Shown: piece by piece, positions 31,871-64,000 of the stretch
How the letters are laid out: every line of letters starts with the position of its first letter
How positions within the stretch are numbered: position 1 is the stretch's first letter
Assembly: GCA_018644725.1 (NCBI GenBank)
Contig: JABGPZ010000069.1
Span: 84,238-148,237 of the forward strand
Direction of reading: 5' to 3'
DNA from: Phycisphaerales bacterium
GTDB lineage: Bacteria; Planctomycetota; Phycisphaerae; SM23-33
DNA length: 64,000 nt
Notes under the pieces: generated by a model
What the model was told of the DNA's origin: nothing
Seen by the model: only the letters and a program-made list of their open reading frames with translations
Databases searched by the model: none
Translations under genes and position numbers: made by a program

Positions 31871-31880
31871 GAGCTGAACC

Positions 31881-44167: not shown

Positions 44168-44291
44168 ATTCCAGAAAGAGAAATGCGTTTCACTCCATAT
44201 AGCATAGGGAATGAGGAAAGCAGACGAAAGGCCAAAAAAAGAACGCGACGAAGAATACTCTTTGCCGCGTTCTTGGAAGTGCAGGGTTTGC

Positions 44292-44690: not shown

Positions 44691-44774
44691 TCTTGATCTC
44701 CTTGAAGGGGAATGGTATATGCAGGATTCCATTATCGGCGAACGGTCACAAAAATCAAGCTTGAAACGCGGAAC

Positions 44775-45548: not shown

Positions 45549-45552
45549 TGGC

Positions 45553-46410: not shown

Positions 46411-46608
46411 TAGTTCACTTTCCAGCCGGGTTGCGGCAAAGAGGAGCACAGATTATAGAGGCCCGGCGAGGGGGTTGAAAGAAAAATGTTTCCTTGCATG
46501 TGAAAACTCCACCGAGTAAAGTGATTCGTTGATGAAATATCCAATTCAGGAAAGCGTTACCCACATAGAATAAACCGATCTTTCCCCCTCGAAACAAGGA
46601 GATATCAG

Positions 46609-48042: not shown

Positions 48043-48101
48043 CGAGCGATCAGAAAAACAAACACACCCGTTGGAGCGATCCAGCGGGTGTTTTTTTGTG
48101 G

Positions 48102-49502
48102 CTATTGTTTCCCGTGATAGCGTTTTACAGCGCGGAATTTCGGTTTCGCGTGGGCAGTGAACTTTGGATCGGTGACGGGGGAGTGGCAGGTGGTGCATAC
48201 GGCGGTGGCCGGTTTGGCGAGGGCCGGGTTGGCCTTGAACAAGAGGTCCGCCTTGGTTTTGCTGGCGTGTTCGTCGACGCCCATGCGATGGCAACTCTGG
48301 CAGTGGACGCCGCCGAGGGCAGGCGTTGTTTCGTGGGTATAGAACCCGCCCTCGAGCCCGAAGCCCAGGCTGTGGCACGAGACGCAGTTCGGGTCGCCGG
48401 TGCGTTTGGCGGTTTGCAGCGTTTTGTAGGCACGCGCGTGACGCGAGGTCGCCCAGCCGGCGTATTCCTGTTTGTGGCATCGCCCGCAGGCGCTGGAGGG
48501 GACGAGTTCGAAGCTCGCGGTGTTGCGTTCGGCATCGAGCGCGGAACGCATGGCATCGCGGGCGTAGGCCTGGTAGATGTCGAGCATGCGCTTGTCGAGT
48601 GGCCACTCGTCGTTGACGAGTTCGGCGCGATAGTCCAGCGCGGTGATGCGGCCTGCGGGGTCGGTGGTGATGGCCACCGCACCGACGGCATCGCTGTTGG
48701 ATGCGTGAATCAGCCAGGCGTTTTGGACGCGGGTGGCGGCGGATTTGAAGTGGACCGAGTGTCCGCGGAGATAGAGGTCGGCGCCGAGGGTGTTTGCGGC
48801 GGCCAGGGTGTCGTCGCCGTCGGCGTGAACCGCGACGAGGACGGTATAGCCGGCGGCTTTGCGTTGGGCGATGTGGGTTTTCAGCGCGGCGTGGGCGGTG
48901 AAGCGAAGTTGTGCGAGGCGCGATTTGTCCATGAAGAGTACGCTGTCGCGCTGGAGGTCGGAGAGGACGCAGAGTTTTTTTCCGCTGGGGAGGGTCCGTA
49001 GGAGTTCGCTCGCCAGGGGAAGGGTTTTTCCGGTGGGGGTGATCGATGCCGTCGTCGTCGAAAGCCACGTGGTTTTCCCCGCTGGCATGGCCTTGCGGAG
49101 GGTCGCGTCGCTGGCGGCCCATTCCTGATCGCCGAGGACCACCGCGTCATAGCCCATCAGGCGGTAGGCCTGCATAAGATAGAGGTTGCACAAATCGCTC
49201 GGCTCGGCCCAGAACGAATCGCCGACGCTTACCAGCAGCGCGCCCGGAAACGCGGTGCGATAACTCAGCACCAGTCCGCTGCGCCGCGCCTGACCGCCGG
49301 GCATGGGCCCTTGGCAGTTGCACACTTCCAGCCGGCCATTCGTGCCGCCCGTGACCAGAATCACTGCGTCGGGATTGGCGATGGCGAAGGGGGCCACGGC
49401 GACGGGCGTCGGTGGGTTCGAGTCCGAGCGGCCGTGATGGGACCCAATTTCGCACCCCAAAACTGCCACGAATCCAGCCAAGATGAAAACAAATCGCATC
49501 AT
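48102..49502 (-). CDS. Secreted multiheme (4x CxxCH) c-type cytochrome with large N-terminal domain of uncertain fold
   Basis: CGRCH, CVSCH, CQSCH and CTTCH motifs in the C-terminal ~130 aa. N-terminal signal peptide. The N-terminal ~330 aa weakly resembles the metallophosphoesterase/5'-nucleotidase fold but lacks clear metal ligands. Confidence 0.6.
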   Translation of the reverse strand: MMRFVFILAGFVAVLGCEIGSHHGRSDSNPPTPVAVAPFAIANPDAVILVTGGTNGRLEVCNCQGPMPGGQARRSGLVLSYRTAFPGALLVSVGDSFWAEPSDLCNLYLMQAYRLMGYDAVVLGDQEWAASDATLRKAMPAGKTTWLSTTTASITPTGKTLPLASELLRTLPSGKKLCVLSDLQRDSVLFMDKSRLAQLRFTAHAALKTHIAQRKAAGYTVLVAVHADGDDTLAAANTLGADLYLRGHSVHFKSAATRVQNAWLIHASNSDAVGAVAITTDPAGRITALDYRAELVNDEWPLDKRMLDIYQAYARDAMRSALDAERNTASFELVPSSACGRCHKQEYAGWATSRHARAYKTLQTAKRTGDPNCVSCHSLGFGLEGGFYTHETTPALGGVHCQSCHRMGVDEHASKTKADLLFKANPALAKPATAVCTTCHSPVTDPKFTAHAKPKFRAVKRYHGKQ

Positions 49503-49594
49503 GTGCGAATTGTAATTGTTTTCCCCCCATCAGAGCAATACAATACCTTCAGAATTGGACAAACCGTCCGAATAGTCTGAAAGGAACGATTTTC

Positions 49595-50050
49595 ATGATT
49601 TATGACACGATTGATCACGCCGCGCTCTATGCCCCGATTTGCGACGCGCTGAAGACGATTCTGGATTTTGCCGCAGGGGTGACGGCTTCGACCGAAACCG
49701 GCAAGCATGAACTGGGTGACGGCCTGTTTGCGATGGTCGGACGCTATGCCACCGAGCCGGCGGAGGAGCGGTTGTTCGAGTCGCACCGGAAGTACATCGA
49801 CGTGCAGATTGTTGTCGAAGGGCGCGAGCGCCTCGACGTTGCGCCGCTGGCGGTGGCGGTGGAGAATGATCCGTATGATGCCGAGAGCGATTGTGCGTTC
49901 TATCACGCCCCGGCCGAGTTTACCACCCAGGTCGCACTTCAAGAGGGCGCGTTCATCGTGCTATATCCCCACGATGCGCACAAACCCAACTGCACCCTCG
50001 AGGAAATCGAAAACATCACTAAAGTCGTCGGAAAAATCCCGGTGGAATAA
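49595..50050 (+). CDS. YhcH/YjgK/YiaL (DUF386) family beta-sandwich protein
   Basis: HRKYIDVQIVVEGRE and PHDAHKPNC align to E. coli YhcH HEQYIDIQLLLNGEE / PGEPHKPGC. Confidence 0.7.
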   Translation: MIYDTIDHAALYAPICDALKTILDFAAGVTASTETGKHELGDGLFAMVGRYATEPAEERLFESHRKYIDVQIVVEGRERLDVAPLAVAVENDPYDAESDCAFYHAPAEFTTQVALQEGAFIVLYPHDAHKPNCTLEEIENITKVVGKIPVE

Positions 50051-50051
50051 T

Positions 50052-50312
50052 TTATCCCGCCGCTTGGACGAAGATTTTTTCGGCCATGGTTTTTCCGATC
50101 ATCAGCTTCGCGTCGTGCACGCGGACCACGCACGGGCCGTTGGGCTGGCGGGAGACCAGCTCGAACTCGGACCCGACGGTCAATCCCATCTCCGCAAGGC
50201 GGTGACGAAGCCCATTGCCCCCGCGCACTTCTCCCACACGAAGCACTCGGCCTGGCTGGGCGAGGCGCAACGGCATCATGGGAATCTCGGGATGGGGCGG
50301 GGTGCTTGGCAT
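50052..50312 (-). CDS. feoA: FeoA-domain protein (start may be the internal MM at 50279)
   Basis: SH3-like FeoA pattern L.L..G..L.V..V.G…RL.EMGL.VG.E.ELV…GP.VV.V…K..IG…A..I.V. No feoB in the window. Confidence 0.5.
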   Translation of the reverse strand: MPSTPPHPEIPMMPLRLAQPGRVLRVGEVRGGNGLRHRLAEMGLTVGSEFELVSRQPNGPCVVRVHDAKLMIGKTMAEKIFVQAAG

Positions 50313-50476
50313 GTCTGTTGAGACAATATCTTAATAAAGCAATCTCTGCGGGTCAAGTGAAACTTTCTGCCAGCCCTGCAAGACCCGCATCGTATACACG
50401 TTTGTTCTTGTATAAAGGGCTAAAACCCCGTACAATGCTCCCGAAAATTGACACCCTATTCCATGGAGAACTTCAC

Positions 50477-51424
50477 ATGTTTCGCAAAAAAGTCAACGTA
50501 GTAGACTGCACCATTCGCGATGGCGGATTGATGAATGACTCGAATTTCGACCTTGAAACGGTTCGCACCGTGGTGGCGGCCACCTGTGCTGCTGGCATCG
50601 ATTATTGCGAGATCGGCTATCGCAACAGCAAGGATCAGTTCGACCCCAAGCAGTTTGGCAAATGGCGCTTTTGCGACGAGGAAGACCTAGTCGCAGCCAC
50701 CGAAGGTATTGACCTGGGGACCACCAAGATGGGCGTGATGATGGATGCCCACAAGTCCGACAAGAACGACCTGCTGCCCGCCAGCGAGTCGGTGATTGAT
50801 ATGGTTCGCGTGGCGACCTATTGCAAGGACGTTCACAAGGCGATTGATATTGCCCAGCATGCCGACGAGCTTGGCTATGAGACGGCCGTGAATATCATGG
50901 CGATTTCCCACGCCTACATGAACGAGCTTGAGCAGGTTCTCGAATTGCTCGACAAAGAAACCAACTGCAAGGTCGTCAATATCGTCGACAGCTTCGGCGC
51001 ACTCTATCAGGATCAGTTGCACTTTATCATCTCGAAGTTCCAGATGCACCTGGAGACCAAGGCCGTCGGCTGCCACTTCCACAACAACCAGCAGCTGGCG
51101 TTCGCGAACACGATTGAAGCGATCCTCAAGGGTTGCACCTGGGCCGACTCGACGATCTACGGCTTCGGCCGCGCGGCGGGCAACTGCTGCACCGAACTGC
51201 TCCTCGGGTTCCTCAAAGACCCCAACCACGACATCCTTCCGATCCTCGACGTTCTCGGCAGCCACATTGTGCCGCTGAAGAAGTCCATCGAGTGGGGCTA
51301 TCACATCCCCTACATGGTCACTGGCATACTCAATCAGCACCCCACGGCCGCGATGAACTTCATGGGCCTGCCGGAAGACGAAAAGTACGATTACCGCAAG
51401 TTCTACACCATGGCTGACGAATAG
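50477..51424 (+). CDS. DRE-TIM metallolyase (HMGL-like / pyruvate carboxyltransferase-domain) aldolase-type enzyme
   Basis: N-terminal [10 protein letters not shown] (the DxxxRDG metal/substrate motif shared by HMG-CoA lyase, 4-hydroxy-2-oxovalerate aldolase and isopropylmalate synthase). Candidate promoter TTGTAT-17-TACAAT at about 50404-50438. The track start at 50306 is an extension. Confidence 0.6.
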
Positions 51425-51432
51425 GGACACAC

Positions 51433-53217
51433 ATGAGCGACGACACGACCCCCGCGGACGAACCCAAACGTAAAGACTTTATCCGCCAGTGGATCGACCG
51501 GGACAACGAATCCGGCCGGTTTGGTGGTGAGGTGCATACGCGGTTTCCGCCCGAGCCCAACGGCTATCTTCACATTGGTCACGCCAAGAGCATTTGTCTG
51601 AACTTTGCCCTCGCGGAAGACTATAGCGGCACGTGCAATCTTCGCTTTGACGACACCAACCCCTGCAAAGAAGAGCAGGAGTATGTTGATTCGATCCAGG
51701 AGGATTTGGCGTGGCTGGGCATGACCCCCACGAAGGTGTGCTATGCGAGTGACTATTTTCAGCAGCTCTACGACTGGGCGATTCAGCTCATCGAACAAGG
51801 CGTAGCGTACGTTGACGAATCGACGCCAGACGCGATCGCCGAAATGCGCGGCGGCGGGCTCGACGAGGGGACCAACAGTCCCTATCGGGATCGACCTGTC
51901 GAAGAAAGCCTCGACCTGTTTGCGCGCATGAAGGCCGGCGAATTTTCCGACGGCAGCATGGTTCTGCGCGCGAAGATCGACATGGCCAGCGCGAACATCA
52001 ATCTGCGCGACCCGATCATGTACCGCGTGCTTCACGCCCACCATCATCGTCAGGGCGACGCGTGGTGCGTCTATCCGATGTACGACTGGGCGCACGGCCT
52101 CGAGGACAGCATCGAGGGGATTACCCACTCGGTCTGCACGCTGGAGTTCGAGAACCACCGCCCGCTGTATGACTGGTTCATCGACCAACTCACCGACATC
52201 AATCATCCCCAGCAAATCGAATTCGCACGGCTGAACCTGACGTACACCGTCATGTCCAAACGCAAGCTGCTGCGGTTGGTTCAAGAGAATCTCGTGACGG
52301 GCTGGGACGATCCGCGGATGCCGACGATTTCTGGCCTGCGCCGACGCGGGTATTCGCCCGAGGCAATCCGGAAATTCTGCAAGACCATCGGCGTGGCGAA
52401 ATTCAATTCCACCATCGACATTCAACTGCTCGATCACTGCCTGCGCGAAGATCTCAACAAGACCTCGCCACGCGTGATGGCGGTGCTTGACCCGCTGAAG
52501 GTGACGATCACCAATTTTTCCGAGGGCGACGTGGATCAGCTCGAAGCGATCAACAATCCCGAGGACGAATCGGCCGGAACGCGGATGGTTCCGTTCACGA
52601 AGGAAATTTATATCGAGCGCGCCGACTTCATGGAAGATGCGCCGAAGAAGTTTTTCCGCCTCAGCCAGGGCCGCGAAGTGCGTCTGCGCTATGCCTACTT
52701 TGTCACTTGCGACGAGGTGCTCAAGGATGACGCAGGCGAAATTGTCGAGCTGAAATGCAGCTACGACCCGGCCACGCGCGGCGGCGATGCCCCCGACGGC
52801 CGGAAGGTCAAAGGGACACTGCATTGGGTCTCGGCGAGCGAATGCCTCGACGCCGAGGTGCGCTTGTATGACCACCTGTTCACGAAGGAAAACCCCGACG
52901 CCACCGAAGAGGGCCAGGATTTTATAGCGAACCTGAACCCCGATTCGCTCAAGACGATTACCGCCAAGGTCGAGCCGTATCTCGCGGCCTCCACGCCCGG
53001 CGACCGTGTTCAGTTTGAGCGCACGGGGTACTTCTGCGTGGATACCGACTCGGCCGCAGATGCGCTGGTGTTCAACCGGACCGTCACGCTGAAGGACAAG
53101 TGGAAGAAGATCCAGAGCAAGCAGGGCGGCCAGCAGAAAAAGAAAAAGAAGCAGGGCGGCCAGCAAAAGAAAAAGCCCCGCCTGGACTATTCCCAGTTCA
53201 AGAACAAAAAGAAGTAG
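51433..53217 (+). CDS. glnS: Glutaminyl-tRNA synthetase with Lys/Gln-rich C-terminal tail
   Basis: HIGH-type [14 protein letters not shown] and VMSKRKL (KMSKS). The GlnRS-specific anticodon-binding β-barrels are present. Tail reads [41 protein letters not shown]. Confidence 0.85.
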
Positions 53218-53220
53218 ATC

Positions 53221-54483
53221 ATGGCTCGTAGCGAGAGGACAATTCGACACGCTGAGCTCGCGAAGGGGTGGTTCAAACGGATAGCTCCGTTTGCGTGGCT
53301 ACCCGTGTTGTTGGTGTCGCTGGCGAGTTGTGAGTGGTTCTGTTTGCCCACCGAGATCGCGACGATGCCGACGGTGGATGCCCAGGTCGACCGCAACGCT
53401 CAAGGGATTGTGGCCCCGCGTTCGACGGTGAAATCGACCGAAGAGCCCGTCGTGATGTTGCCCAACCATACTCGCTCGATTCGCGGGGCGTATTGGTTCA
53501 ACGCCGAGGTCGCTTCGATTCCCGCCCGCTATTACACGCACGTCTATCACGCGTTTTTGCGCTCGGACAACAATGGTAATTTGCTGTTGAATGCCGCCTC
53601 GACGCCGACGGCGAGCTTTGCCCAGACGGCCGCGAAGTTTGTCGCCCATGTCCACAAGGGCGGGGCCTATGCGATGCTGTCGCTCGGCGGGGGAATGGAC
53701 AAGTCGTTCCATGTGTTCACGCCCAATGCTGTCAAGCGCCGGCGATATGTCAACGCGGTTCTCGCCGTGGTGCAGAAGTATGGCTATGACGGCGTGGACC
53801 TCGATTGGGAGCATCCGCGCAACGCGACCGAAAAACGCCACTGGGCAGCACTGATGACCGACATGCGCACCGGGCTGGACATGCTGGCGCGCCGGAGTGA
53901 CAAGAAATATTGGCTGACCGCAGCGGTCGGCACGAGCAAGTGGAACGCGGGCTATTTCGACATTCCCACGATCCGCACAAAGCTCGACTTCATCAACCTG
54001 ATGGCGTATGACTATATCGGCCCGTGGGGCGGCGACCCCGCCGGAGACCAGGCCGCGCTGGCGACGGCGTCCTATGGCGGACACTCGACCTACAAGGCGC
54101 TCAAACACTGGCACGATCTGGGGATCAAAGCCGACCAGATCGTCATCGGCTTGCCGTTCTATACGCGTGCGTGCTTCGGGTACAAACCCGGGCAGATCAT
54201 CCAAAAAAACGCATCGAGCGGAAAGCGCACCATGGCGTTCGGCTATGACAGTTTTGTCGCCTATGCCGCGCAGAAGCGCTGGACCTATCGCCTTGACCCG
54301 GCCTCGAAAGTGCGCTGGTATCGTTCGCCGGGCGGAAGCCACTTCGCCGCCGTCGACGGCCCCGAGGCCATTGCCCACAAAACGCACTTTGCCGAGTCCA
54401 ACGGCTATCGAGGCGTGTTCTGCTGGGCGACCTATCACAATCCCGGCCAGCAATTGCAAAAAGCCATGGCCCGCGAGCAATAG
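53221..54483 (+). CDS. Glycoside hydrolase family 18 (chitinase-like) lipoprotein
   Basis: Catalytic DGVDLDWEHP (DxxDxDxE). Lipobox LVSLASC. TIM-barrel GH18 blocks (SLGG…, MAYDY). Confidence 0.8.
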   Translation: MARSERTIRHAELAKGWFKRIAPFAWLPVLLVSLASCEWFCLPTEIATMPTVDAQVDRNAQGIVAPRSTVKSTEEPVVMLPNHTRSIRGAYWFNAEVASIPARYYTHVYHAFLRSDNNGNLLLNAASTPTASFAQTAAKFVAHVHKGGAYAMLSLGGGMDKSFHVFTPNAVKRRRYVNAVLAVVQKYGYDGVDLDWEHPRNATEKRHWAALMTDMRTGLDMLARRSDKKYWLTAAVGTSKWNAGYFDIPTIRTKLDFINLMAYDYIGPWGGDPAGDQAALATASYGGHSTYKALKHWHDLGIKADQIVIGLPFYTRACFGYKPGQIIQKNASSGKRTMAFGYDSFVAYAAQKRWTYRLDPASKVRWYRSPGGSHFAAVDGPEAIAHKTHFAESNGYRGVFCWATYHNPGQQLQKAMAREQ

Positions 54484-54526
54484 CCGCGACGGCCTGTCCC
54501 GTTTCCCTTTAGAGATTGAGATTTCC

Positions 54527-55987
54527 ATGATCCAGATCAAGACTCGTTTTGCTCCGTCGCCGACGGGCTCGCTGCATGTCGGCGGGGCCCGCACGGCATT
54601 GGCCTGTTACCTCGTCGCGAAGAAATTCGGCGGCACGATGCTCCTGCGGATCGAAGACACCGACCGCGCTCGGCACCAGGAAGAGGCCGTCGAGAAGATT
54701 CTTGCCGACCTGGCTTGGCTGGGCATCGAGATCGACGAAGGCGTCGGTGCGGGCGGCGATAACGGCCCGTATCGCCAGTCCGAACGGCTGGAGATCTATC
54801 AGGCGCACATCCAGAAACTCCTCGACGAGGGGAAGGCCTATTACGCGTTCGACACCCCCGAAGAGCTCGAAGCGTTGCGCGACGCAGCCCGGGCGGAAAA
54901 GCGCGACTTCAAATATTCCCGCCCCCAAACGTTGCCGACCCAGGCCGACGTTGATGCCGCCCGCGCCGAGGGCCGACCCGTTGTGGTGCGGCTGCTGTCG
55001 GACAAGCGCGATGTGAGCTTCGTCGATGAAGTCTTCGGCGAGATCACCATCCCCGCCGACCAGACCGACGATTTCATCATCGCCAAAGGGGACGGCTGGC
55101 CGACCTATCACCTCGCCAACGTCGTCGATGACCACCACATGGGCGTGAATTTCATCCTCCGCGGACAGGAATTCCTCGGCCAGACCTGGCGGCATGTGCT
55201 GCTGCGCGAGGCACTTGGTTTTCCCGCGCCGCGCTATGCGCACCTCGCGTTGATTATGGACATGAAGGGTCGCAAACTTTCCAAACGCGACGGCGATGTC
55301 GAGGTCGACCTGTTCCGCCGCGCGGGCTATCTGCCCGAGGCGCTGGTGAACTTTATCGCGCTGCTGGGATGGAACCCCGGCGATGAGCGCGAATTTTTCA
55401 CGATGGACGATCTCGCCGAGGCGTTTGAGATTTCGCGCGTGAGCAAGACCAATGCCAAGTTTGACCGCGACAAGCTGATGTCGTTCAATACCGATTGGGC
55501 GGCCGCGCTGGAGGCGGATCGTTTGCTCGGCGCGTTCACTGATTATCTTTCGACGACCGATTCGCCGCTGGCAGATCAAGACGAAGCGACGCTTTCCGCC
55601 GTTCTCGCCGCCTGTTCGGGCTTCCGACGTTTCGACGAAGTACTCGCCAAAGTCGCGCCGATTTTCATGGCCGACGACGCGTACGAGTATGACCCCAAGG
55701 CCGTCAAGAAGGGACTCGAAAAAGGTGAAGGCGCGGGTTATGCGCGGCTGGAATTGATCCTGCCCGAAATCGAAGCGCTCGGCGACTGGACGGCTGAGGC
55801 GATTCATAACTGGATGGGCGCATACTGCGAAGCGAACGAGATCGGCTTCGGCAAGATCGGCCAACCTATGCGCGTGGCACTCGCGGGCGGGATGTTCGGC
55901 CCGGCGATTCCCGAGATGATGGTCCTGCTCGGCAAAGAGCGAGCGATGGCCCGCATTCAGCGCACGATTGCGATGCGCGGCGAATAG
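54527..55987 (+). CDS. gltX: Glutamyl-tRNA synthetase
   Basis: MIQIKTRFAPSPTGSLHVGGARTA (HIGH) and KLSKRDG (KMSKS). The track's 54008 start is an Arg-rich extension overlapping the GH18 gene. Confidence 0.9.
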   Translation: MIQIKTRFAPSPTGSLHVGGARTALACYLVAKKFGGTMLLRIEDTDRARHQEEAVEKILADLAWLGIEIDEGVGAGGDNGPYRQSERLEIYQAHIQKLLDEGKAYYAFDTPEELEALRDAARAEKRDFKYSRPQTLPTQADVDAARAEGRPVVVRLLSDKRDVSFVDEVFGEITIPADQTDDFIIAKGDGWPTYHLANVVDDHHMGVNFILRGQEFLGQTWRHVLLREALGFPAPRYAHLALIMDMKGRKLSKRDGDVEVDLFRRAGYLPEALVNFIALLGWNPGDEREFFTMDDLAEAFEISRVSKTNAKFDRDKLMSFNTDWAAALEADRLLGAFTDYLSTTDSPLADQDEATLSAVLAACSGFRRFDEVLAKVAPIFMADDAYEYDPKAVKKGLEKGEGAGYARLELILPEIEALGDWTAEAIHNWMGAYCEANEIGFGKIGQPMRVALAGGMFGPAIPEMMVLLGKERAMARIQRTIAMRGE

Positions 55988-56067: not shown

Positions 56068-56140
56068 GGGCCTTTAGCTCAGTTGGTTAGAGCGCACGGA
56101 TCACACCCGTGAGGCCACTGGTTCGAATCCAGTAAGGCCC
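56068..56140 (+). tRNA. tRNA-Val (anticodon CAC)
   Basis: Acceptor GGGCCTT/AAGGCCC, D-arm GCTC-AGTTGGTTA-GAGC, anticodon stem CACGG/CCGTG with loop AUCACAC, T-arm ACTGG-TTCGAAT-CCAGT, discriminator A. Confidence 0.8.
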
Positions 56141-56146
56141 ATCGAA

Positions 56147-56182
56147 CGCGGATACTTGCGAATTGCAGGTATCCGCTTTTTT
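56147..56182 (+). terminator. Intrinsic terminator after tRNA-Val
   Basis: GCGGATAC-(13 nt)-GTATCCGC followed by TTTTTT. Confidence 0.65.
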
Positions 56183-56341: not shown

Positions 56342-57478
56342 TTGACTGATCGAACACCCATACCGCTGTCGAGCCAGGACATTACCGAACGCGAAATCCA
56401 GGCCGTCGTCGACGTACTTCGTGGCAACCGCCTGAGCATTGGCCCGCGCACCGAAGCGTTTGAATCCGCCTGCGCCGCCGCCAGTGGCCGCTCCTATGGC
56501 GTGGCCGTCAACTCCGGCACGTCGGCGCTGCATCTGTGCGTCAACGGTCTGGGCATCGGCGAGGGCGACGAGGTCATTACCTCGCCGTTCAGCTTTGTCG
56601 CGACGACCAACTGCATTCTCTTTGAAAACGCGACGCCCGTGTTCGTGGACATCGATCCCGAGAGCTACAACATGGATCCCGCCGCGACCGAGGCCGCCGT
56701 CAACGACCGCACCAAAGCGCTGCTTCCGGTGGAGGTCTTCGGCAACACGGCACACTTCGACACCTACGAATCCATCGCTCAGCGCAACGAGCTGAAGATG
56801 ATCGAAGATTCCTGCGAGGCCCTCGGCGGGCGACTTGGTGATCGCAAGGCCGGGAGCTTTGGCGACGCGGGGACCTTCGCGTTCTATCCCAACAAGCAGG
56901 TCACCACCGGCGAAGGCGGGATGCTCGTGACCGACAACGAGGAACTGCGCGACATGGCGCGGGCGCTTCGCAATCAGGGCCGCCACCCGCGCGACGCCTG
57001 GCTGCAACACACCTACATGGGCTACAATTTCCGCATCAGTGAAATCACCGCCGCCCTTGGCGAAGTGCAGCTTTCGCGTCTTGACGAGATCGTTTCCAAG
57101 CGCCGGGCCGTGAGCGCGCTATATGATGAAGCGCTTTTGGGGCTTGTTGAGAAGGGGTTATTGCACTTGCCGCCGATGGCCCAGCGCGAATCGGCGAGCT
57201 TCTTCGTGTATGTCATTCGCCTTGCGGACCGGTTCAGCGAGGCCGACCGCGACGATGTTCGCGCAAAGCTCACCGCCGCGGGCATTGGCAACAATTGCTA
57301 CTTCGTGCCGATCCATTATCAGCCCTACATTCAGGAGCGGCTTGGCTATCAGAAAGGCCAGTTCCCCGTCACCGAACACCTTGCCGCGCGGACGATCGCG
57401 ATTCCGTTTTTCTCGAACATGACCGAGTCCCAAGTTGGACAGGTCGTCGACACTCTTACCGAAATTCTCACGGCCTAG
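56342..57478 (+). CDS. DegT/DnrJ/EryC1/StrS-family PLP-dependent sugar aminotransferase (PglE/WecE-like); TTG start
   Basis: IPLSSQDITEREIQAVVDVLRGNRLSIGPRTEAFE N-terminus typical of the family, with the PLP-lysine region later. GGAAGGA SD before TTG 56342. TATATT -10 at about 56319. Confidence 0.8.
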   Translation: MTDRTPIPLSSQDITEREIQAVVDVLRGNRLSIGPRTEAFESACAAASGRSYGVAVNSGTSALHLCVNGLGIGEGDEVITSPFSFVATTNCILFENATPVFVDIDPESYNMDPAATEAAVNDRTKALLPVEVFGNTAHFDTYESIAQRNELKMIEDSCEALGGRLGDRKAGSFGDAGTFAFYPNKQVTTGEGGMLVTDNEELRDMARALRNQGRHPRDAWLQHTYMGYNFRISEITAALGEVQLSRLDEIVSKRRAVSALYDEALLGLVEKGLLHLPPMAQRESASFFVYVIRLADRFSEADRDDVRAKLTAAGIGNNCYFVPIHYQPYIQERLGYQKGQFPVTEHLAARTIAIPFFSNMTESQVGQVVDTLTEILTA

Positions 57479-57479
57479 C

Positions 57480-58112
57480 ATGAACGCATGGACCGAAAAA
57501 CCCGTACACCGTTTCCTCAAGCGCGCGATGGACATTTCGGCGGCGCTGTTGGTGATCCTGTTGGCGTCCCCGCTTTTGCTGGTGACGGTGGTGTTGGTGC
57601 GTTGGCGCCTGGGAAGTCCGATCCTGTTCCGTCAGACCCGCCCGGGCCTGGGCGCGAAACCCTTTTCCATTGCGAAATTTCGCACGATGCGCGATGCAGT
57701 GGATGGGGATGGCAATCCACTGCCGGATGACGTTCGGCTGACCAAGTTCGGCAAACTTCTTCGCAAGCTCAGCATTGACGAGCTGCCGCAGTTGTGGAAC
57801 GTGCTGAAGGGGGAGATGTCGCTCGTGGGCCCCAGGCCGCTGCGGATGCATTATGTCGAGCGCTATAACGCCCGCCAGGCGCGCCGGATGGATATGCGTC
57901 CGGGGATTACGGGCTGGGCGCAAATCAAGGGGCGAAATTCGATATCCTGGGAAGAGAAGTTCGAGTTTGACGGGTATTACATCGAGAACTTTTCGATCTG
58001 GCTGGATATTAAAATTCTGTTTCTCACTGTGGTGAAGGTGTTCAAGGTCGAGGGGATTTCCCAAGGTGGTCAGGCCACGATGAAAGAATTCATGGGTACG
58101 GACGAATCTTGA
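57480..58112 (+). CDS. Small bacterial sugar transferase (PglC/WbaP C-terminal domain-type initiating phosphoglycosyltransferase)
   Basis: Single re-entrant N-terminal helix, then KRAMDISAALLVILLASPLLLV…, RPGITGWAQI, and PRPL…SLVGPRPL motifs. ATG 57480 is 1 nt after the upstream stop. Confidence 0.75.
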   Translation: MNAWTEKPVHRFLKRAMDISAALLVILLASPLLLVTVVLVRWRLGSPILFRQTRPGLGAKPFSIAKFRTMRDAVDGDGNPLPDDVRLTKFGKLLRKLSIDELPQLWNVLKGEMSLVGPRPLRMHYVERYNARQARRMDMRPGITGWAQIKGRNSISWEEKFEFDGYYIENFSIWLDIKILFLTVVKVFKVEGISQGGQATMKEFMGTDES

Positions 58113-58217
58113 GAATTGCCGGTGCTTTCGCGTTGACAATGTTGCTCTATGCCCATACCATGAAGAAATGTGGAGTCTTCATACGAAGTAGCTTCCTTGT
58201 TGAAAGAAAGTGAATTC

Positions 58218-59249
58218 ATGTCAGCACTGCCATCCAATTCTCCCGCCTTCGCTTCTGTTCGAGACGTGATGTCATTTTTTCCTGAAGGGCGATTGACCAA
58301 CGAGGATATTTCCGCGCAGTTTCCCGATTGGACGGCGGATAAAATTTATGAGAAGACGGGTTTCCGTAGCCGCAATATCGCCGCGAGCGATGAGACGGCC
58401 TCTGACCTGGCCTATGGGGCCGCCGTAAAATTGTTGGCCGCCCATCCCGGCCTTGCCGATCAAATTGACTTGCTCGTGTTTTGCACCCAGAGCCCAGACT
58501 ATGTCCTGCCCACCAGCGCGTGTGTCTTGCAGGATCGTTTGGGGCTTGCGACGACATGCGCGGCGTTTGATTTCAATCTTGGCTGCAGCGGGTATGTCTA
58601 TGGGCTGTCGATCGTCAAGTCGATGATCGAATCCGGCCAGGCGACAAAAGCATTGTTTCTGACGGGGGAGACCTATTCCAAGTGGATGGGGCCGACGGCC
58701 CGCTCCGTGATGACCATTTTTGGCGATGCTGGAACGGCCACGCTCGTTGAGGCCTGCCAGGCCGAGGCGCAGAAGATCGGCCCGTTTGTCTATGGGACCG
58801 ATGGCCGCGGGAAAAACGATCTTATCGTCCACGGCAGCGCCACGCGCCCTCTGGACAGTGATGCTCAGAGCGACTCGCTTCCGCCTGAGGGGAATTTGCC
58901 AGACCGGCTGTATATGGACGGGCCGGAAATCTTCTCGTTCACGATTCGCTCGGTCCCCAAGGCCGTTCAGGCGTTGCTCACCAAGTCCGAGATGACGTAT
59001 GACGACTTGGACTGGGTGATTTTCCATCAGGCCAACAAGTTTATGCTCGACCACCTGCGTCGCCAATGCCACATCCCAGAAGAGAAATTTGTCTTCGCGA
59101 TGGAGAACTACGGCAATACGGTGTCCAATACGATCCCGGTCGTCTTGGTCGACATGCTTGCCGCAGGAACACTTCAGCGCGGACAAAAACTGATGCTTGT
59201 TGGTTTTGGGGTTGGATATTCCTGGTCGGCGTGTATACTGGAGTGGTAA
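58218..59249 (+). CDS. 3-oxoacyl-ACP synthase III-like (KAS III/FabH family)
   Basis: Cys-His-Asn triad context: AAFDFNLGCSGYVYGL, VIFHQANKFMLDH, ENYGNTVSNTIP. Possible internal promoter TTGACA-17-TACCAT at about 58131-58163. Confidence 0.75.
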   Translation: MSALPSNSPAFASVRDVMSFFPEGRLTNEDISAQFPDWTADKIYEKTGFRSRNIAASDETASDLAYGAAVKLLAAHPGLADQIDLLVFCTQSPDYVLPTSACVLQDRLGLATTCAAFDFNLGCSGYVYGLSIVKSMIESGQATKALFLTGETYSKWMGPTARSVMTIFGDAGTATLVEACQAEAQKIGPFVYGTDGRGKNDLIVHGSATRPLDSDAQSDSLPPEGNLPDRLYMDGPEIFSFTIRSVPKAVQALLTKSEMTYDDLDWVIFHQANKFMLDHLRRQCHIPEEKFVFAMENYGNTVSNTIPVVLVDMLAAGTLQRGQKLMLVGFGVGYSWSACILEW

Positions 59250-59280
59250 CCCTCTATGAACTCTTGTGAAGGATTGAAGA

Positions 59281-59520
59281 ATGAATCAAGCTGAATTTCT
59301 CGAAGAACTCGAAGTTGTCCTCGACGAAGATGCCGGTACGCTGGCACCTGCGACCCTCATTGCTGACATTGAAGGATGGGACTCGACGGGCTTGTTGAGC
59401 GTGATCGCGCTTCTCGACGGCGACCTGGGAGTTCATGTGAACATTGACACCCTTCGAGCGTGTAAGACGCTCGCGGACCTGATTGCGTTGCTGGGCGATA
59501 CCATTACTGAATCCAACTGA
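59281..59520 (+). CDS. Dedicated acyl carrier protein
   Basis: 79 aa and acidic, with the phosphopantetheine attachment motif IEGWDSTGLLSVIA (the DS(L/T) Ser). Confidence 0.7.
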   Translation: MNQAEFLEELEVVLDEDAGTLAPATLIADIEGWDSTGLLSVIALLDGDLGVHVNIDTLRACKTLADLIALLGDTITESN

Positions 59521-59529
59521 GGGCGATCT

Positions 59530-60285
59530 GTGAGCATTTCATTTGACTTGACGGACAAACAGATTTTAGTCACGGGTGCCTCCAGCGGCCTGGGGCAGTC
59601 GATTGCGATTCATGCCGCTCAGGCGGGCGCGAACGTGATCCTGCTCGGGCGCAACCCAGAGCGCCTGGACGAAACGGCGTCTCAATGTGATGGGCGCGGC
59701 GTGTGTGTCCAGATGGACCTGATGGACCTCGATGCGTTGCCCAAATTGGTGCAGTCACTCGCCAAGGAACACGGGCCGCTGTCGGGCCTGGTTCACAGCG
59801 CGGGAGTGTATCAAAATGTCCCGCTTCGGGCCATTCGCGGCGAGAAGTTGCAATCCACTCTGGCGCTCAATGTCTCTGCGGGTGTGATGTTGCTCAAGGG
59901 CCTGTCCGTTCGCGGGTGCCACGCTGAAACGGCTTCTGCGGTGTTCCTCAGTTCCGTGATGGGCAAGGTAGGCCAGCCTGGCCTGGCGGGGTATTGCATG
60001 AGCAAAGGGGCCGTGGAACAGGCCGTCAAGGCCCTGGCGCTGGAACTACAGCCCGACGGGATCCGCGTGAATGCCATTGCGCCCTCGGCCATCCAGACGC
60101 CGATGATCGACGCTGCCTTCGCCACATTGGGCGAACCCGAACGCGAAGCCATTCTCAGCACTCTTCCCAGTGGACTCGGCCAGCCTGAGGACGTTGCGGC
60201 CGCGGCGATCTATCTTCTTTCGGACGCCAGCAAATTTGTCACCGGAACCAGTATGCTCGTCGATGGCGGGTATTGCGCACAATAG
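59530..60285 (+). CDS. SDR-family oxidoreductase (3-oxoacyl-ACP reductase FabG-like)
   Basis: TGASSGLGQSIA (TGxxxGxG), NAG-like HSAGV, and the catalytic YCMSKGAVE (YxxxK). Confidence 0.8.
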   Translation: MSISFDLTDKQILVTGASSGLGQSIAIHAAQAGANVILLGRNPERLDETASQCDGRGVCVQMDLMDLDALPKLVQSLAKEHGPLSGLVHSAGVYQNVPLRAIRGEKLQSTLALNVSAGVMLLKGLSVRGCHAETASAVFLSSVMGKVGQPGLAGYCMSKGAVEQAVKALALELQPDGIRVNAIAPSAIQTPMIDAAFATLGEPEREAILSTLPSGLGQPEDVAAAAIYLLSDASKFVTGTSMLVDGGYCAQ

Positions 60286-60293
60286 GAATTATC

Positions 60294-60980
60294 ATGACCG
60301 AGAATTCAACCATTTCGTTTTTGCTTGCGGGCGCTGGCGGCTTTGGCCGAGGGGTTTATCATTGGCTGTGCGATTATGCCACCGCTACCTATGGCCCGCG
60401 CGGTGAAGCGTGGGAGGTTCGCGGTTTCCTTGATGACGACCTTACCGCGCTGGAGGGGTTTTCTGGATTTCCGCCGATTGTGTCCACGATTCAAGACTAT
60501 CGCCCCGAGCCTGGTGACCGGGTGGTTCTGGCGATCGGTATCCCGCGGATTCGCAAGGCCGTCGTGAAGAAATTACTCGAAGTCGACGCGACGTTCGAGA
60601 CCCTGATTCATCCCCAAGCGTTGGTGCTGTCCACGGCGAAAGTTGGTTTGGGCAGCATTGTTGGGCCGTTCAGTACGATCAGCGACCATGCGGAAGTGGG
60701 CGACTATGCGTTGGTGAATTCCTATTCCAGCATCGGGCACGATGTGAAAATCGGCGCGTTTTGTGACCTGTGTCCGCACGCGGCGCTTTCGGGGTTCGCT
60801 CGCATCGACGATGACGTGTTTTTCGGCACGAGCTCGGTGGTGGTTCCCGGAAAATCTGTTGGTCGCGGGGCCCAGGTGGCTGCGGGGTCGACGGTCGTAC
60901 GCAATACACGACCCTACTCGTTTGTACAAGGTGTTCCAGGCAAAGAAGTTCGCGACTTTTTTCCCAAAGACGACGCGTAA
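60294..60980 (+). CDS. NeuD/PglD-family hexapeptide-repeat sugar N-acyltransferase
   Basis: N-terminal Rossmann-like FLLAGAGGFGRGV…FLDDD, and a C-terminal left-handed β-helix (…IGHDVKIGAFCDLCPHAALSG…) typical of PglD/NeuD/WbpD. Confidence 0.7.
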   Translation: MTENSTISFLLAGAGGFGRGVYHWLCDYATATYGPRGEAWEVRGFLDDDLTALEGFSGFPPIVSTIQDYRPEPGDRVVLAIGIPRIRKAVVKKLLEVDATFETLIHPQALVLSTAKVGLGSIVGPFSTISDHAEVGDYALVNSYSSIGHDVKIGAFCDLCPHAALSGFARIDDDVFFGTSSVVVPGKSVGRGAQVAAGSTVVRNTRPYSFVQGVPGKEVRDFFPKDDA

Positions 60981-60989
60981 GCTGTCGGG

Positions 60990-62219
60990 CTATTTCTCTG
61001 CGGCCGCTTCGAGGGTTTCGACGAATCGTTTCCCGAGGATGTCGCGGCTGAAGGTGGACTCTGCCAGAGCGCGGGCATTTGTTCCCATCGCGGGCAGCTC
61101 GCTCCGTTTGGCCATCAGCTCTTCCACGGTGTCCGCGAAGGCTGTCGCGTTGTCGGGCTCGACCACCACGCCGCACTGATTGTCGGAAATGTATTCGCCG
61201 ACCCAGCCGGGATAATTATTGAGGATCGGCAGGCCGCACGCGAGGTAGTCGAAAAACTTGTTCGGGCTCGTGCCGCGATAGAAGGCCGGGACGTTTTTCA
61301 GGATCATCATCCCCACGTCAAACTGCGGCAGCAGGCGCGCGAGTTCGCGTTTTTTGATCGGGTCCACCCAGCAGGTGTACTCTTCAAGCCCCTCGGCCTC
61401 GACGCGCTGAAGCAGGTGAGGCTTTTTGCCGCCACCGCCAATGAAGCAGAACTTCACGCCGGTGATGCCGCGTTGTTTGATTTCAGCGACGGCATCGAGA
61501 ACCGCGTCGAGCCCGTTGGCGAGGCCATGGGCACCGGTGAACACCATGCGGAAATCGCCGGGCGAGCCAAAGCGCGGATCGTTGTCCACTTCCGAGTGGT
61601 CCGTCGCGGGCTGAAACAGATCGATGTCGGACGAGTTGGGCACCATCGCGACGTGGTCGGGGTTGACGCCGCTTGCGAGGATGCCCTTGCAGATGCCCGG
61701 CGCGAGGCCGATGATCCGCTTGGCGGCGCGATAGGCGCGCTGCTCCATCCGCTTGAGATAGACCTTCAGCGGCCAGGGTTTCACCAAGCCCATTGCGATG
61801 GGCAGCTCCGGCCAGAGGTCGCGCACTTCAAACACGAACGGGCAGTTGTGGTGCTTCGCGGACTTGCGGCCGATGTCGCCGGTGGTCAATGGCGTCGAGG
61901 TTGCGAACACCAGATCGACGTCTTGGAAGGTCTTGATCAGCTTGGTCGCACGTTTGGCGAATTTCAGGAACGTCATCCAGCGCTTGGGGAAACTCATCGC
62001 ATTGGAGTAGGACTGGATGATGCGGAAGACGTCGATCCCGTCGATGGTCTCGCGCTGGACTTCGCCGAGTTTGCCTTCCACCGCCGTCAGGTCGCGCGTG
62101 CCGAAAACCATTGATACGCGGTGGCCTGCCTGGATCAGGCGGCGGGCCATTTCGTAGCTGCGGGTTCCGCCTTTTTGGTCGGGCGTTGTGAAATATTGGT
62201 GGATGTAGACAATGTGCAT
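60990..62219 (-). CDS. Glycosyltransferase family 4 (GT-B)
   Basis: MHIVYIHQYFTTPDQKGGTRSYEMARRL N-terminus and a C-terminal E-x7-E containing region. Convergent with the acyltransferase gene. Confidence 0.8.
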   Translation of the reverse strand: MHIVYIHQYFTTPDQKGGTRSYEMARRLIQAGHRVSMVFGTRDLTAVEGKLGEVQRETIDGIDVFRIIQSYSNAMSFPKRWMTFLKFAKRATKLIKTFQDVDLVFATSTPLTTGDIGRKSAKHHNCPFVFEVRDLWPELPIAMGLVKPWPLKVYLKRMEQRAYRAAKRIIGLAPGICKGILASGVNPDHVAMVPNSSDIDLFQPATDHSEVDNDPRFGSPGDFRMVFTGAHGLANGLDAVLDAVAEIKQRGITGVKFCFIGGGGKKPHLLQRVEAEGLEEYTCWVDPIKKRELARLLPQFDVGMMILKNVPAFYRGTSPNKFFDYLACGLPILNNYPGWVGEYISDNQCGVVVEPDNATAFADTVEELMAKRSELPAMGTNARALAESTFSRDILGKRFVETLEAAAEK

Positions 62220-62339: not shown

Positions 62340-63314
62340 TTAGCGTCGCTTGGGGGGGCTGGACTTGCGCGGGATGGTGCGGGCACCGGAGGCGTTCTTG
62401 GGGCCTCGCTTGTTCTTGGGGCGGCGCAGGTCGGGCTTTTTGGGTTTCGCGGCCTTGGCCAGGCGCTTGTTGGCGACGGCGGCGTTGGGGAACTCGCCGG
62501 GCTTGTACATGATGAACAGGTAGTTGAACCCGCGCAGGAAAAAGTTCCCCTCCTCGGCCGACTTGCGATAGTTGCCCATCTCCAGCGTCTTGTTGTGGCG
62601 CGTGACGGCGATGACGTCCACCGGCGCGAAGGCGTCGCACATCATCGCGAACAGCTCGAGGCCGATGGGGAAAAACCCCTTGCCCGTCTCGAACGAGTCG
62701 CTGACGTAGAGCCCCATGTAGCTGTCGGGTTTCAGGATGCGGTGGATGTCCTGCAGAACGTCGCCCATCGCGTCATAGTACCCTCCGTCGACGGCGGAGA
62801 GCTTGCCGATGCAGGCCGGGTCGTCGGAATATTCCAGGTGCGTCGAGTAGGGCGGATCAATGAACACGAAGTCGACGCTCTCGTCGCCCTGCGGCATGTT
62901 TCGCGAGTCGGCATAGGTAATGTCGCCGCGCTGGGGATCGACGTCAAAGCCGATGCCTTTTCGGCCGAGATCTTTGCACACGTCCAGCGTCGTACCCGAT
63001 CCGCAGCAGGGGTCAACGACCGTATCTCCTGGTTTGGTATAGCGTTGCAGCAGATTCCAGATGATGTAGCTCGGCGTCGCGCCGCGGTAGTTCGGGTCGC
63101 CCTGAAGCTCGTTGCCGTAGTGCTGGGAGGGGTAGTCCCACAGCGTGGTCGGCTGAATTGCCAGCGACGGCTTTTTCGCCCCGGCATGTGTATTGAACGG
63201 TTTTTTGCCGGGATAGGGTTTTCGCCCGCCCGAGTTGTGGGATTTTGCGGCGTGATTCGCCAGCGGATTGCGGCCGGGGCGATTGTTGCGGTTGGATTTT
63301 TTGTAGTCACTCAT
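62340..63314 (-). CDS. Site-specific DNA methyltransferase (N6-adenine/N4-cytosine, PF01555-like) with highly basic N- and C-terminal tails
   Basis: Motif I VVDPCCGSGTT precedes motif IV FIDPPYS. Tails KKSNRNNRPGRN… and …AKAAKPKKPDLRRPKNKRGPKNASGARTIPRKSSPPKRR. No restriction endonuclease is adjacent. Confidence 0.7.
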   Translation of the reverse strand: MSDYKKSNRNNRPGRNPLANHAAKSHNSGGRKPYPGKKPFNTHAGAKKPSLAIQPTTLWDYPSQHYGNELQGDPNYRGATPSYIIWNLLQRYTKPGDTVVDPCCGSGTTLDVCKDLGRKGIGFDVDPQRGDITYADSRNMPQGDESVDFVFIDPPYSTHLEYSDDPACIGKLSAVDGGYYDAMGDVLQDIHRILKPDSYMGLYVSDSFETGKGFFPIGLELFAMMCDAFAPVDVIAVTRHNKTLEMGNYRKSAEEGNFFLRGFNYLFIMYKPGEFPNAAVANKRLAKAAKPKKPDLRRPKNKRGPKNASGARTIPRKSSPPKRR

Positions 63315-63439
63315 GGCCCTATCGTAGCAGAACCACGCAAAAAACGCACGATTTTTCATTTTTTGCGAACGGATTTGCCCCTCGGACGACTAAACTTATA
63401 TGGAACTTCCCCGACATGCATCTATATAAGGAGATCGCG

Positions 63440-64000
63440 ATGAAACGACTGATGATGGTAGCGGTATTGCTGGCGATGGCCAGCCCGTCGATGGCGGCAC
63501 TGTGTAAGAAATGCAACGGTCAGCCCACGATTATGAGCATCGGCCAATGTACGGCCTGCAAAGGCCACACCTCCAGCGGCGCGAACAAGCTCTGTCCTAA
63601 GTGCAGCGTCAAGCAGGGCAAGTGTGAACGCTGCCTCGTAGCGCTCAAGCCCGCGAAGAACCCCGCGCCCAAGCCCGCGCCAGGGATCGCGGCCGGCGGT
63701 GGCTGCGTCCAGCCTCCCAAGCTGCCCGCCAAACCCGCGCCGTTCAAAAAGCAGTCCTGGGGTGAGTACAGCAAGGACCGCGCGCCGATGGCCAAGGTCA
63801 AAACGCTCCTCGGCGGTAACGATTTTATCGCCGACGCGGAAACGTTTGCGAAGGTGTGGAAGGCGCTGAATGGCAAAAAGGCCGCGCCGAAGATCGAATG
63901 GAAGAGCGAACTCGTACTCTATTTCAGCGTGATTGCGAATAACCGCCTGCGGCCGTTCGTGAAGAACACCAAGGGCGCTGTGCAAGCGAGAGCGATGTCG
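63440..64000 (+). CDS. Secreted Cys-rich protein, 5' part (ORF runs off window end)
   Basis: AAGGAG RBS, signal peptide MKRLMMVAVLLAMASPSMAA, then CKKC…CTAC…CPKC…CERC, then a Pro/Ala/Lys linker. No stop before nt 64000. Confidence 0.5.
   Translation, partial: MKRLMMVAVLLAMASPSMAALCKKCNGQPTIMSIGQCTACKGHTSSGANKLCPKCSVKQGKCERCLVALKPAKNPAPKPAPGIAAGGGCVQPPKLPAKPAPFKKQSWGEYSKDRAPMAKVKTLLGGNDFIADAETFAKVWKALNGKKAAPKIEWKSELVLYFSVIANNRLRPFVKNTKGAVQARAMS

Follow-up and report, generated by a model that had tools for sequence, protein, structure and literature searches.

A predicted N-(3-hydroxyacyl) amino-sugar locus in a Phycisphaerales bacterium: a private KAS III-ACP-ketoreductase trio beside a PglD-family acyltransferase and a PglC-like transferase

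Gene sets that attach an N-acyl group other than acetyl to a surface amino sugar have been described in Pseudomonas syringae and Flavobacterium psychrophilum; we compare them here with a locus of seven genes at positions 56342-62219 of a 64,000-nucleotide stretch of DNA (the window, below) from a Phycisphaerales bacterium (assembly GCA_018644725.1, contig JABGPZ010000069.1). Six genes on the + strand encode, in order, a DegT-type aminotransferase, a PglC-like phosphoglycosyltransferase (PGT), a beta-ketoacyl-acyl carrier protein synthase III (KAS III, or KAS), an acyl carrier protein (ACP), a short-chain dehydrogenase/reductase (SDR) and a PglD-family acyltransferase; the seventh, on the - strand, encodes a family 4 glycosyltransferase (GT4). 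We consider it likely, judging from the sequence, that the KAS III, ACP and ketoreductase form a private trio that feeds the N-acyltransferase and thus yields an N-(3-hydroxyacyl) amino sugar, and that the module starts a surface glycan and decorates its first sugar. We are less confident of the details than of this general scheme.

The viosamine island of P. syringae pv. tabaci comprises vioA (aminotransferase), vioM, vioT, vioS (KAS III), vioB (acetyltransferase family), vioR (3-oxoacyl-ACP reductase) and acp (Yamamoto et al., PMC3927599). The flagellin glycan of this species ends in Qui4N(3-hydroxy-1-oxobutyl)2Me, which mass spectrometry no longer finds in vioR, vioB, vioA and vioT mutants; strains without vioS, vioR and acp are viable, as is a vioR deletion mutant (PMC3927599). 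We recovered the island from a P. syringae genome (L085; L-numbers denote loci of our survey), where it lies between glutamine synthetase and histidine kinase genes. Its products have 372, 241, 1175, 340, 213, 253 and 68 amino acids (aa), and the first five match the published 372, 241, 1173, 338 and 213 aa. The window proteins are identical to those of L085 at 47% (KAS and VioS), 28% (ACP), 48% (SDR and VioR), 36% (acyltransferase and VioB) and 29% (aminotransferase) of positions, and VioS groups with the window KAS, having a mean identity of 52% to KAS of type A (the window type) and 36% to type B. Thus four adjacent homologues of vioS, acp, vioR and vioB, contiguous on one strand with gaps of 8-31 nt, accompany a sugar 4-aminotransferase gene in the window. 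Both the P. syringae island and the flagellar glycosylation island of Pseudomonas aeruginosa PAK (orfA-D) share with it one VioS-type KAS III, a private ACP, an SDR, a VioB/PglD-family acyltransferase and a DegT aminotransferase. The sugar of the P. syringae island is dTDP-viosamine, and a methyltransferase is absent from the window locus, which has instead a PglC-type lipid-carrier transferase and a GT4. The presence of these two enzymes suggests a sugar with which a lipid-linked glycan begins, probably a UDP-linked 2-acetamido sugar.

The F. psychrophilum locus contains pglE, pglF, wfpA (GT4), wfpB (PglC homologue), wfpC and wfpE (both KAS III), wfpD (ACP), wfpF (ketoreductase, KR) and wfpG (PglD homologue); the O-antigen carries Qui2NAc4N(3,5-dihydroxyhexanoyl), and WfpG is proposed to move the acyl group from ACP to UDP-Qui2NAc4N (Cisar et al., PMC6519341). 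Compared by gene order and description, this locus has the window order PGT-KAS-ACP-(KAS)-KR-PglD-like, with a GT4 and a PglE-type aminotransferase alongside, and the carrier lipid receives its N-acylated bacillosamine-type sugar first. It differs in its second KAS (WfpE), in having pglF within the locus and in its 3,5-dihydroxyhexanoyl group, whereas the window locus has one KAS and no dehydratase.

Three further systems share parts of the scheme. The Campylobacter Pgl pathway (PglF, PglE, PglD and PglC, using UDP-N,N'-diacetylbacillosamine, UDP-diNAcBac) resembles the window in its PGT (53% identity to C. concisus PglC), in its acyltransferase with PglD_N, beta-helix and catalytic His, and in its DegT aminotransferase. 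Its PglD uses acetyl-CoA, whereas in the window the KAS, ACP and KR genes lie between the PGT and the acyltransferase; unlike Pgl, the window locus lacks PglF, an oligosaccharyltransferase and a flippase. In Acinetobacter baumannii (qhbC/qhbB/gdr), the same predicted class of sugar is reached through a dehydratase, an aminotransferase and a PglD/WeeI-type acyltransferase, giving UDP-D-QuiNAc4N(3-hydroxybutanoyl). There is no private KAS, ACP or KR in that module, so its acyl donor must come from general metabolism. Finally, LpxA and LpxD of lipid A synthesis resemble the window acyltransferase in the left-handed beta-helix and, weakly, in sequence, and their donor is a 3-hydroxyacyl-ACP; they lack the PglD-type N-terminal domain and use long chains and the housekeeping ACP, and the window enzyme scores far under the LpxA and LpxD family cut-offs.

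The scheme that we propose is as follows. The DegT aminotransferase would make a 4-amino sugar. The private ACP would receive its phosphopantetheine arm from the cell's phosphopantetheinyl transferase and its malonate from housekeeping FabD; the VioS-type KAS III would perform one extension with acetyl-CoA to give acetoacetyl-ACP, the SDR would reduce it to 3-hydroxybutanoyl-ACP, and the PglD/VioB-family acyltransferase would move the acyl group to the 4-amino group of the sugar. The PglC-like PGT would then place the N-acylated sugar 1-phosphate on undecaprenyl phosphate and the GT4 would add the second sugar; flipping, polymerisation or transfer to the final acceptor would be encoded elsewhere. 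The initial annotation of this DNA had already suggested a 3-hydroxyacyl-ACP donor built in situ. As to the trio and its acyltransferase, this agrees with the homology to vioS, acp, vioR and vioB and with the gene order in F. psychrophilum; as to direct transfer from acyl-ACP (rather than reduction after transfer), it is a step that one has to infer in every organism.

The window KAS is a KAS III by its two ACP_syn_III domains and its triad of Cys (LGCSG), His (FHQAN) and Asn (GNTVS), which is invariant in 18 relatives and in all 109 KAS sequences of the surveyed loci (81 KAS-A and 28 KAS-B). It reaches 232.5 bits against the fabH model TIGR00747, whose cut-off is 292.1, and so falls outside the housekeeping FabH family. 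We predict that it forms acetoacetyl-ACP on the private ACP. The latter, a 79-aa protein, is the weakest of the seven calls (PP-binding at 20.6 bits against a cut-off of 20.8; no match in NCBIfam). A profile built from 20 of its homologues in related loci matches solved ACPs with E = 8e-9, and the phosphopantetheine Ser35 in its W-D-S motif is invariant among the homologues; by this serine and the profile similarity it is an acyl carrier protein, with predicted phosphopantetheinylation. The SDR (adh_short_C2, E = 4e-49; KR, E = 9e-17) has the motifs of a classical SDR in its translation, i.e., TGASSGLG (TGxxxGxG), the Ser in LSSVMG and YCMSK (YxxxK), and we predict it to be a 3-ketoacyl reductase. 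Among solved structures no relative of the SDR was found at 1e-40, a threshold too strict to be informative.

The best solved relative of the window KAS is 3GWA from Burkholderia pseudomallei (362 bits). The entries 3GWA/3GWE come from structural genomics and are labelled plain 3-oxoacyl-ACP synthase III ("FabH"); considering the score of 362 bits as compared to 140 for E. coli FabH, this protein is probably a VioS-type enzyme rather than a housekeeping FabH.

One could argue that the FabH, ACP and SDR genes are housekeeping genes of fatty-acid initiation that stand beside glycan genes by chance, since the KAS passes the general model NF006829 "beta-ketoacyl-ACP synthase 3" (270 against a cut-off of 249). 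We regard this as very unlikely, close to negligible: the ACP is divergent and far from AcpP, the KAS scores below the fabH cut-off, no fabD, fabF, fabZ or plsX was found nearby in the scanned open reading frames (ORFs) of the window, and the homologous genes of P. syringae are dispensable (PMC3927599). In addition, the same KAS family occurs in glycan loci of 80 species, including Pseudomonas, Burkholderia, Flavobacterium and Paenibacillus.

The acyltransferase combines PglD_N, a hexapeptide beta-helix and a catalytic His, which places it in the PglD/NeuD/VioB/PerB family; its score against TIGR03570 (152.7 bits) is slightly below the cut-off of 160.8. The best solved relatives are VioB (7TXP), PerB, PglB-ATD, WeeI and PglD. 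Its SIGHD motif contains a His that falls opposite the residue altered in the PerB mutant entry H141N and that does not vary among 12 relatives. An AlphaFold model of mediocre quality (pLDDT 74) has members of the PglD family as all of its top 17 Foldseek matches, though these are weak (best E = 8e-3, TM about 0.35); this result does not bear on the donor. We predict that the enzyme acylates the sugar at its 4-amino group with a 3-hydroxyacyl (or 3-ketoacyl) residue. It is tempting to consider it an ordinary acetyl-CoA N-acetyltransferase making a diNAcBac-like sugar, with the trio serving some other acylation (e.g., O-acylation or a lipid anchor), as all its solved relatives use acetyl-CoA and the trio occurs also with other acyltransferase folds and without a PglD-like gene. 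We hold this to be distinctly improbable, considering that the PglD-like gene is the only acyltransferase gene in the window operon and starts 8 nt after the SDR gene, that it is the commonest partner of the cassette elsewhere, and that both vioB and vioR are needed for the N-hydroxybutanoyl sugar in P. syringae (PMC3927599).

As for the chain, our best guess for the acyl group is 3-hydroxybutanoyl (C4). It is drawn by analogy from the single VioS-type KAS: one KAS goes with C4 in P. syringae and two go with C6 in F. psychrophilum.

KAS III enzymes vary widely in primer choice, and the position that we take to correspond to Phe87 of E. coli FabH is Leu in 79 of 84 type A KAS sequences. Together with the weak resemblance of the acyltransferase to LpxD and LpxA, users of long 3-hydroxyacyl-ACPs, this would favour an acyl group other than C4, produced if the KAS used another primer or acted repeatedly to give a longer or branched 3-hydroxyacyl chain; a lipid-like N-acyl bacillosamine would be the extreme. 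We consider this improbable. No dehydratase or enoyl reductase for full elongation cycles is present among the locus genes, the one-KAS homologue in P. syringae gives C4 (PMC3927599), and C6 in F. psychrophilum accompanies a second KAS gene (PMC6519341).

The identity of the sugar is suggested mainly by the PGT. Its alignment with C. concisus PglC (8G1N) runs gap-free over 197 residues with 52.8% identity and 235 bits. The Asp-Glu dyad, the PRP motif, the aromatic box, the C-terminal extension and the GLLLP loop mark PGTs that use UDP-diNAcBac (Anderson et al. 2023, PMC10186338). The window PGT keeps the dyad, the PRP motif, the extension and all five aromatic-box residues (Y118, Y122, W150, F154 and F197); the loop is partly kept (GNPLP here, GELLP in C. 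concisus), and the E117-K196 salt bridge is not (H and E here). The protein thus belongs with the small monotopic PGTs of the PglC cluster that use UDP-diNAcBac-type sugars, and this signature points to a bacillosamine-type first sugar, in line with the bacillosamine or quinovosamine type that the initial annotation had proposed. We predict that the PGT puts an N-acylated amino sugar 1-phosphate on undecaprenyl phosphate.

The aminotransferase is predicted to yield a nucleotide-linked 4-amino-4,6-dideoxy sugar. It scores below the cut-offs of the NCBIfam models PseC, LegC and ArnB; its solved relatives are perosamine synthetase and ArnB (about 220 bits each), PseC (151) and PglE (138). An attempt to identify the sugar from the aminotransferase alone was abandoned, the enzyme being roughly equidistant from perosamine synthetase, ArnB, PseC and PglE. 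Among the surveyed loci, the window aminotransferase and PGT are closest (46-60%) to their counterparts in L009, L016 and L024; the aminotransferase in particular is 46-48% identical to those in L009 and L024. A PglF-like gene follows the aminotransferase gene in L009 and adjoins the counterparts in L016 as well; including L063, there are three loci in which the gene for a PglF-like dehydratase neighbours that of the aminotransferase or the PGT. The PglC-type signature and these PglF-like neighbours lead us to favour UDP-2-acetamido-4-amino-2,4,6-trideoxyhexose (UDP-QuiNAc4N type) as the acceptor, which would be the sugar loaded first on undecaprenyl phosphate; a sugar linked to dTDP or GDP may be an alternative. 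The GT4 is below the cut-offs of the WcaI and PEP-CTERM stp3 models and has no solved relative at E <= 1e-5. Members of its cluster occur in 28 of 81 loci, with 38% identity in L009, where the gene adjoins the PGT gene. We predict that it adds the second sugar to the lipid-linked N-acyl amino sugar.

The distribution of the cassette was surveyed with the window KAS in a scan of one genome per species, which gave matches in at least 599 species genomes. Eighty of these loci and the window, 81 in all, made up the neighbourhood set, in which ORFs were clustered and recurrent clusters named by Pfam; neighbours were counted within 4 kb of the KAS in the 58 loci that extend 4 kb or more to either side of it. 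Among the matches listed, the best KAS identity in the species-genome scan was 53%, and a protein search gave identities of 50-66% in many phyla; the KAS family is large and well conserved. An ACP homologue is near the KAS in 46 of the 58 loci and an SDR homologue in 40. The PglD-like acyltransferase leads the cassette partners (25 loci), and one of five acyltransferase classes (PglD-like, a second hexapeptide type, an Antibiotic_NAT-like type resembling aminoglycoside-3-N-acetyltransferase, and two GNAT types) is present in 42. A DegT aminotransferase occurs in 20 loci, and 23 have a further KAS III of another kind (type B, which shares about 36% identity with type A). Other genes in the surveyed loci encode GT2 and GT4 glycosyltransferases, Wzx, ABC-2 transporters, UDP-glucose dehydrogenase, and RmlB-like, FnlA/PseB-like and PglF-like dehydratases. 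The window gene set is repeated in L013, L019, L003 and L063, and the closest metagenomic relative (KAS 66% identical) has the order Wzy_C-GT-PGT-ACP-SDR-PglD-KAS-aminotransferase. Such glycan-gene neighbours indicate that the trio is a module of glycan loci and no fatty-acid synthesis operon. The initial annotation had spoken of a rarely characterised route. This does not hold, considering that relatives of the KAS occur, mostly in glycan loci, in at least 599 species genomes from many phyla, and that the route had been described earlier; the locus is a new planctomycete example of a known, widespread module, and the route is neither rare nor new.

Some KAS-ACP units are paired with acyltransferases of unrelated folds, sometimes without an SDR, so the cassette seems to be a portable unit for supplying acyl donors, not tied to PglD-like enzymes. 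We put forward, tentatively and with more doubt than the general scheme, the proposal that a PglD-family enzyme takes the acyl group directly from the dedicated ACP and that KAS-ACP(-KR) is a portable donor cassette that serves five or more acyltransferase types, unrelated to one another, in the glycan loci of over 10 phyla and of at least one archaeal metagenome-assembled genome (MAG). Our search of the literature, from which subscription journals were mostly absent, yielded neither an ACP-dependent enzyme of the NeuD/PglD/VioB family nor an in vitro reconstitution of acyl-ACP-dependent sugar N-acylation.

Several observations from the survey are worth recording separately. The KAS is followed by an Antibiotic_NAT-like gene in L014, L041, L044, L049 and L069; a GNAT gene and a polysaccharide deacetylase gene accompany the KAS-ACP unit in L053, L071, L073 and L078, and a GNAT gene in L004, L043 and L074. 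A gene for the alpha subunit of a Rieske/ring-hydroxylating oxygenase stands inside the cassette in 12 loci (L017, L026, L033, L035 at 8159-9244, L036, L046, L050, L054, L058, L065, L068 and L080), all with two KAS genes, and is absent from every one-KAS locus, which hints that the C6 acyl chain is oxidised further. L067, a 6.4-kb contig assigned to a Methanosarcinales archaeon MAG, contains two back-to-back cassettes of acyltransferase, ACP, KAS and SDR genes; contamination or mis-binning is possible behind the archaeal assignment.

A number of points weigh against the proposed scheme. Yamamoto et al. (PMC3927599) place a dTDP-N-acetoacetylviosamine intermediate in their pathway, i.e., reduction after transfer, and list it as the precursor that accumulates without VioR. 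The order in the window might be the same: the amino sugar would receive acetoacetyl from the ACP through the acyltransferase, and reduction of the N-acetoacetyl nucleotide sugar by the SDR would follow. The surveyed loci that have KAS, ACP and an acyltransferase but no SDR also suggest that 3-ketoacyl transfer may occur in nature. We find this order doubtful, as the SDR scores best against models of FabG-like 3-oxoacyl-ACP reductases and KR; the phenotype of the vioR mutant (complete loss of mVio) fits both orders. Reduction before transfer, which we prefer, is an order that we infer. Among the other adverse points, the aminotransferase is no nearer to PglE than to perosamine synthetase or ArnB, the best solved relatives of the acyltransferase act on dTDP and GDP sugars, and two published cases (a one-KAS and a two-KAS system) underlie the predicted chain length. 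The searchable literature offered no enzyme assays for this type of cassette.

The same side of the balance includes the genes that a complete pathway would need. A UDP-GlcNAc 4,6-dehydratase of the PglF/WbpM/Gdr type, which a complete Pgl-like bacillosamine pathway would have in the locus, is absent from it; the related loci L009, L016, L018, L062 and L063 do possess such an enzyme. Outside the locus, 30 large ORFs of the window were scanned (842-26912, 30602-31897, 42785-51424 and 63422-63985; between 27355 and 42694 the scan covered 30602-31897), and none has a Polysacc_synt_2 or Epimerase domain. This is consistent, for the 30 ORFs scanned, with the initial annotation, which had found no 4,6-dehydratase in the window. 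It had also recommended looking just beyond 64 kb: on a 175-kb copy of the contig, the gene calls up to 10 kb past the GT4 gene, an interval including a 4.6-kb stretch with no called gene, contain no dehydratase. Neither these calls nor the scanned large ORFs include a flippase or polymerase. Given that the scanned part contains none of the three, the completeness of the pathway is unproven.

The features of the locus are collected in Table 1. Genes were taken from the ORF list of the window and from public gene calls, and domains were assigned with Pfam and NCBIfam.

Table 1. Features of the glycan locus and its upstream boundary (window coordinates)
Feature	Position	Strand	Evidence and remarks
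tRNA-Val (CAC)	56068..56141	+	ARAGORN; upstream boundary, no functional part of the glycan locus
Terminator-like hairpin	56148..56176	+	strong hairpin; 13-bp stem, 7 GC pairs, then TTTTTTG
DegT/PglE-type pyridoxal phosphate (PLP) sugar aminotransferase	56342..57478	+	DegT_DnrJ_EryC1 PF01041, E = 1e-112
PglC-like small monotopic PGT, 210 aa	57480..58112	+	Bac_transf PF02397, E = 6e-65
KAS III (FabH-like, VioS type, "KAS-A"), 343 aa	58218..59249	+	ACP_syn_III + ACP_syn_III_C
ACP, 79 aa, acidic	59281..59520	+	PP-binding just under cut-off; homologue profile
Classical SDR, FabG/VioR type	59530..60285	+	adh_short, adh_short_C2, KR
PglD/NeuD/VioB-family left-handed beta-helix N-acyltransferase	60294..60980	+	PglD_N PF17836 + Hexapep PF00132
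GT4 glycosyltransferase, convergent	60990..62219	-	Glyco_transf_4 + Glycos_transf_1

All seven genes that the initial annotation had listed are present where it placed them, with families that match Pfam and NCBIfam and with small corrections of start codons: the PGT ORF opens at 57435 and the public gene calls start at the ATG at 57480, and the KAS ORF opens at 58170 with its ATG at 58218. The 343-aa KAS III is identical to an NCBI protein from a Phycisphaerales MAG. Catalytic motifs are intact across the locus genes. The gaps between the six + strand genes are 1, 105, 31, 9 and 8 nt, the PGT gene starting 1 nt past the aminotransferase stop. The locus does begin after tRNA-Val, as had been noted; its start is about 200 nt past the tRNA and beyond the hairpin, which separates the tRNA from the glycan operon. 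At the other end, the stop codons of the acyltransferase (+) and GT4 (-) genes are 9 bp apart (60980-60990) with no terminator in between, so overlap or read-through between the two transcripts is unavoidable.

We considered a genomic island targeted to the tRNA and discarded the idea: neither a direct repeat of the tRNA-Val 3' end nor any other flanking repeat is present, and there is no integrase. The GC content is 0.55-0.62 over the locus and its flanks, with no clear compositional break. The window looks like ordinary chromosome, containing accB/accC-like genes and genes for a fumarase-type lyase, a MurD-like ligase, phosphofructokinase, peptidases and two class I aminoacyl-tRNA synthetases of the Glu/Gln type. 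On the 175-kb contig copy, the GT4 gene is followed by genes for a DNA methyltransferase and an Inhibitor_I42/YscW protein, then by the 4.6-kb stretch mentioned above and by genes for a GNAT and a DUF3604 protein.

Four observations concern the surroundings. The gene for an N6/N4 DNA methyltransferase (62340-63359, -) adjoins the glycan locus, and no restriction enzyme was recognised in the part of the window examined; it may be an orphan methylase. The gene at 24684-26108 (-), for an MBOAT membrane O-acyltransferase, shares its end with the start of an ORF of 342 aa (23681-24709) that has no Pfam match, the two overlapping; the region 23681-26108 (-) may be an AlgI/DltB-type polysaccharide O-acylation pair, unrelated to the glycan locus. 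A GTPase of [FeFe]-hydrogenase maturation, of the HydF type, is encoded at 5103-6329 (+), which hints at fermentative hydrogen metabolism in this Phycisphaerales MAG. A GH18 (chitinase-like) gene (53221-54483, +) sits between the class I aminoacyl-tRNA synthetase genes at 51433-53217 and about 54500-55987.

N-acyl groups beyond acetyl on sugars of the bacillosamine, viosamine and fucosamine types are common antigenic determinants, and the making and delivery of their acyl donors have so far been argued from gene content and a few mutants. With this locus, Planctomycetota gain a compact example that has a single KAS and is coupled to a PglC-type PGT. Taken with the survey, it supports two working rules: a single KAS corresponds to C4 and a pair to C6; and the cassette is modular and very widespread. 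For annotation, "FabH/FabG/ACP" genes of this kind are better read as glycan tailoring and should not be counted as fatty-acid synthesis. We believe that the locus leaves current understanding unchanged but is useful as a candidate system for biochemical reconstitution, namely of whether a PglD-family enzyme uses acyl-ACP. If direct use of ACP is true, this planctomycete member would mark a general and largely unstudied way to diversify N-acyl sugars.

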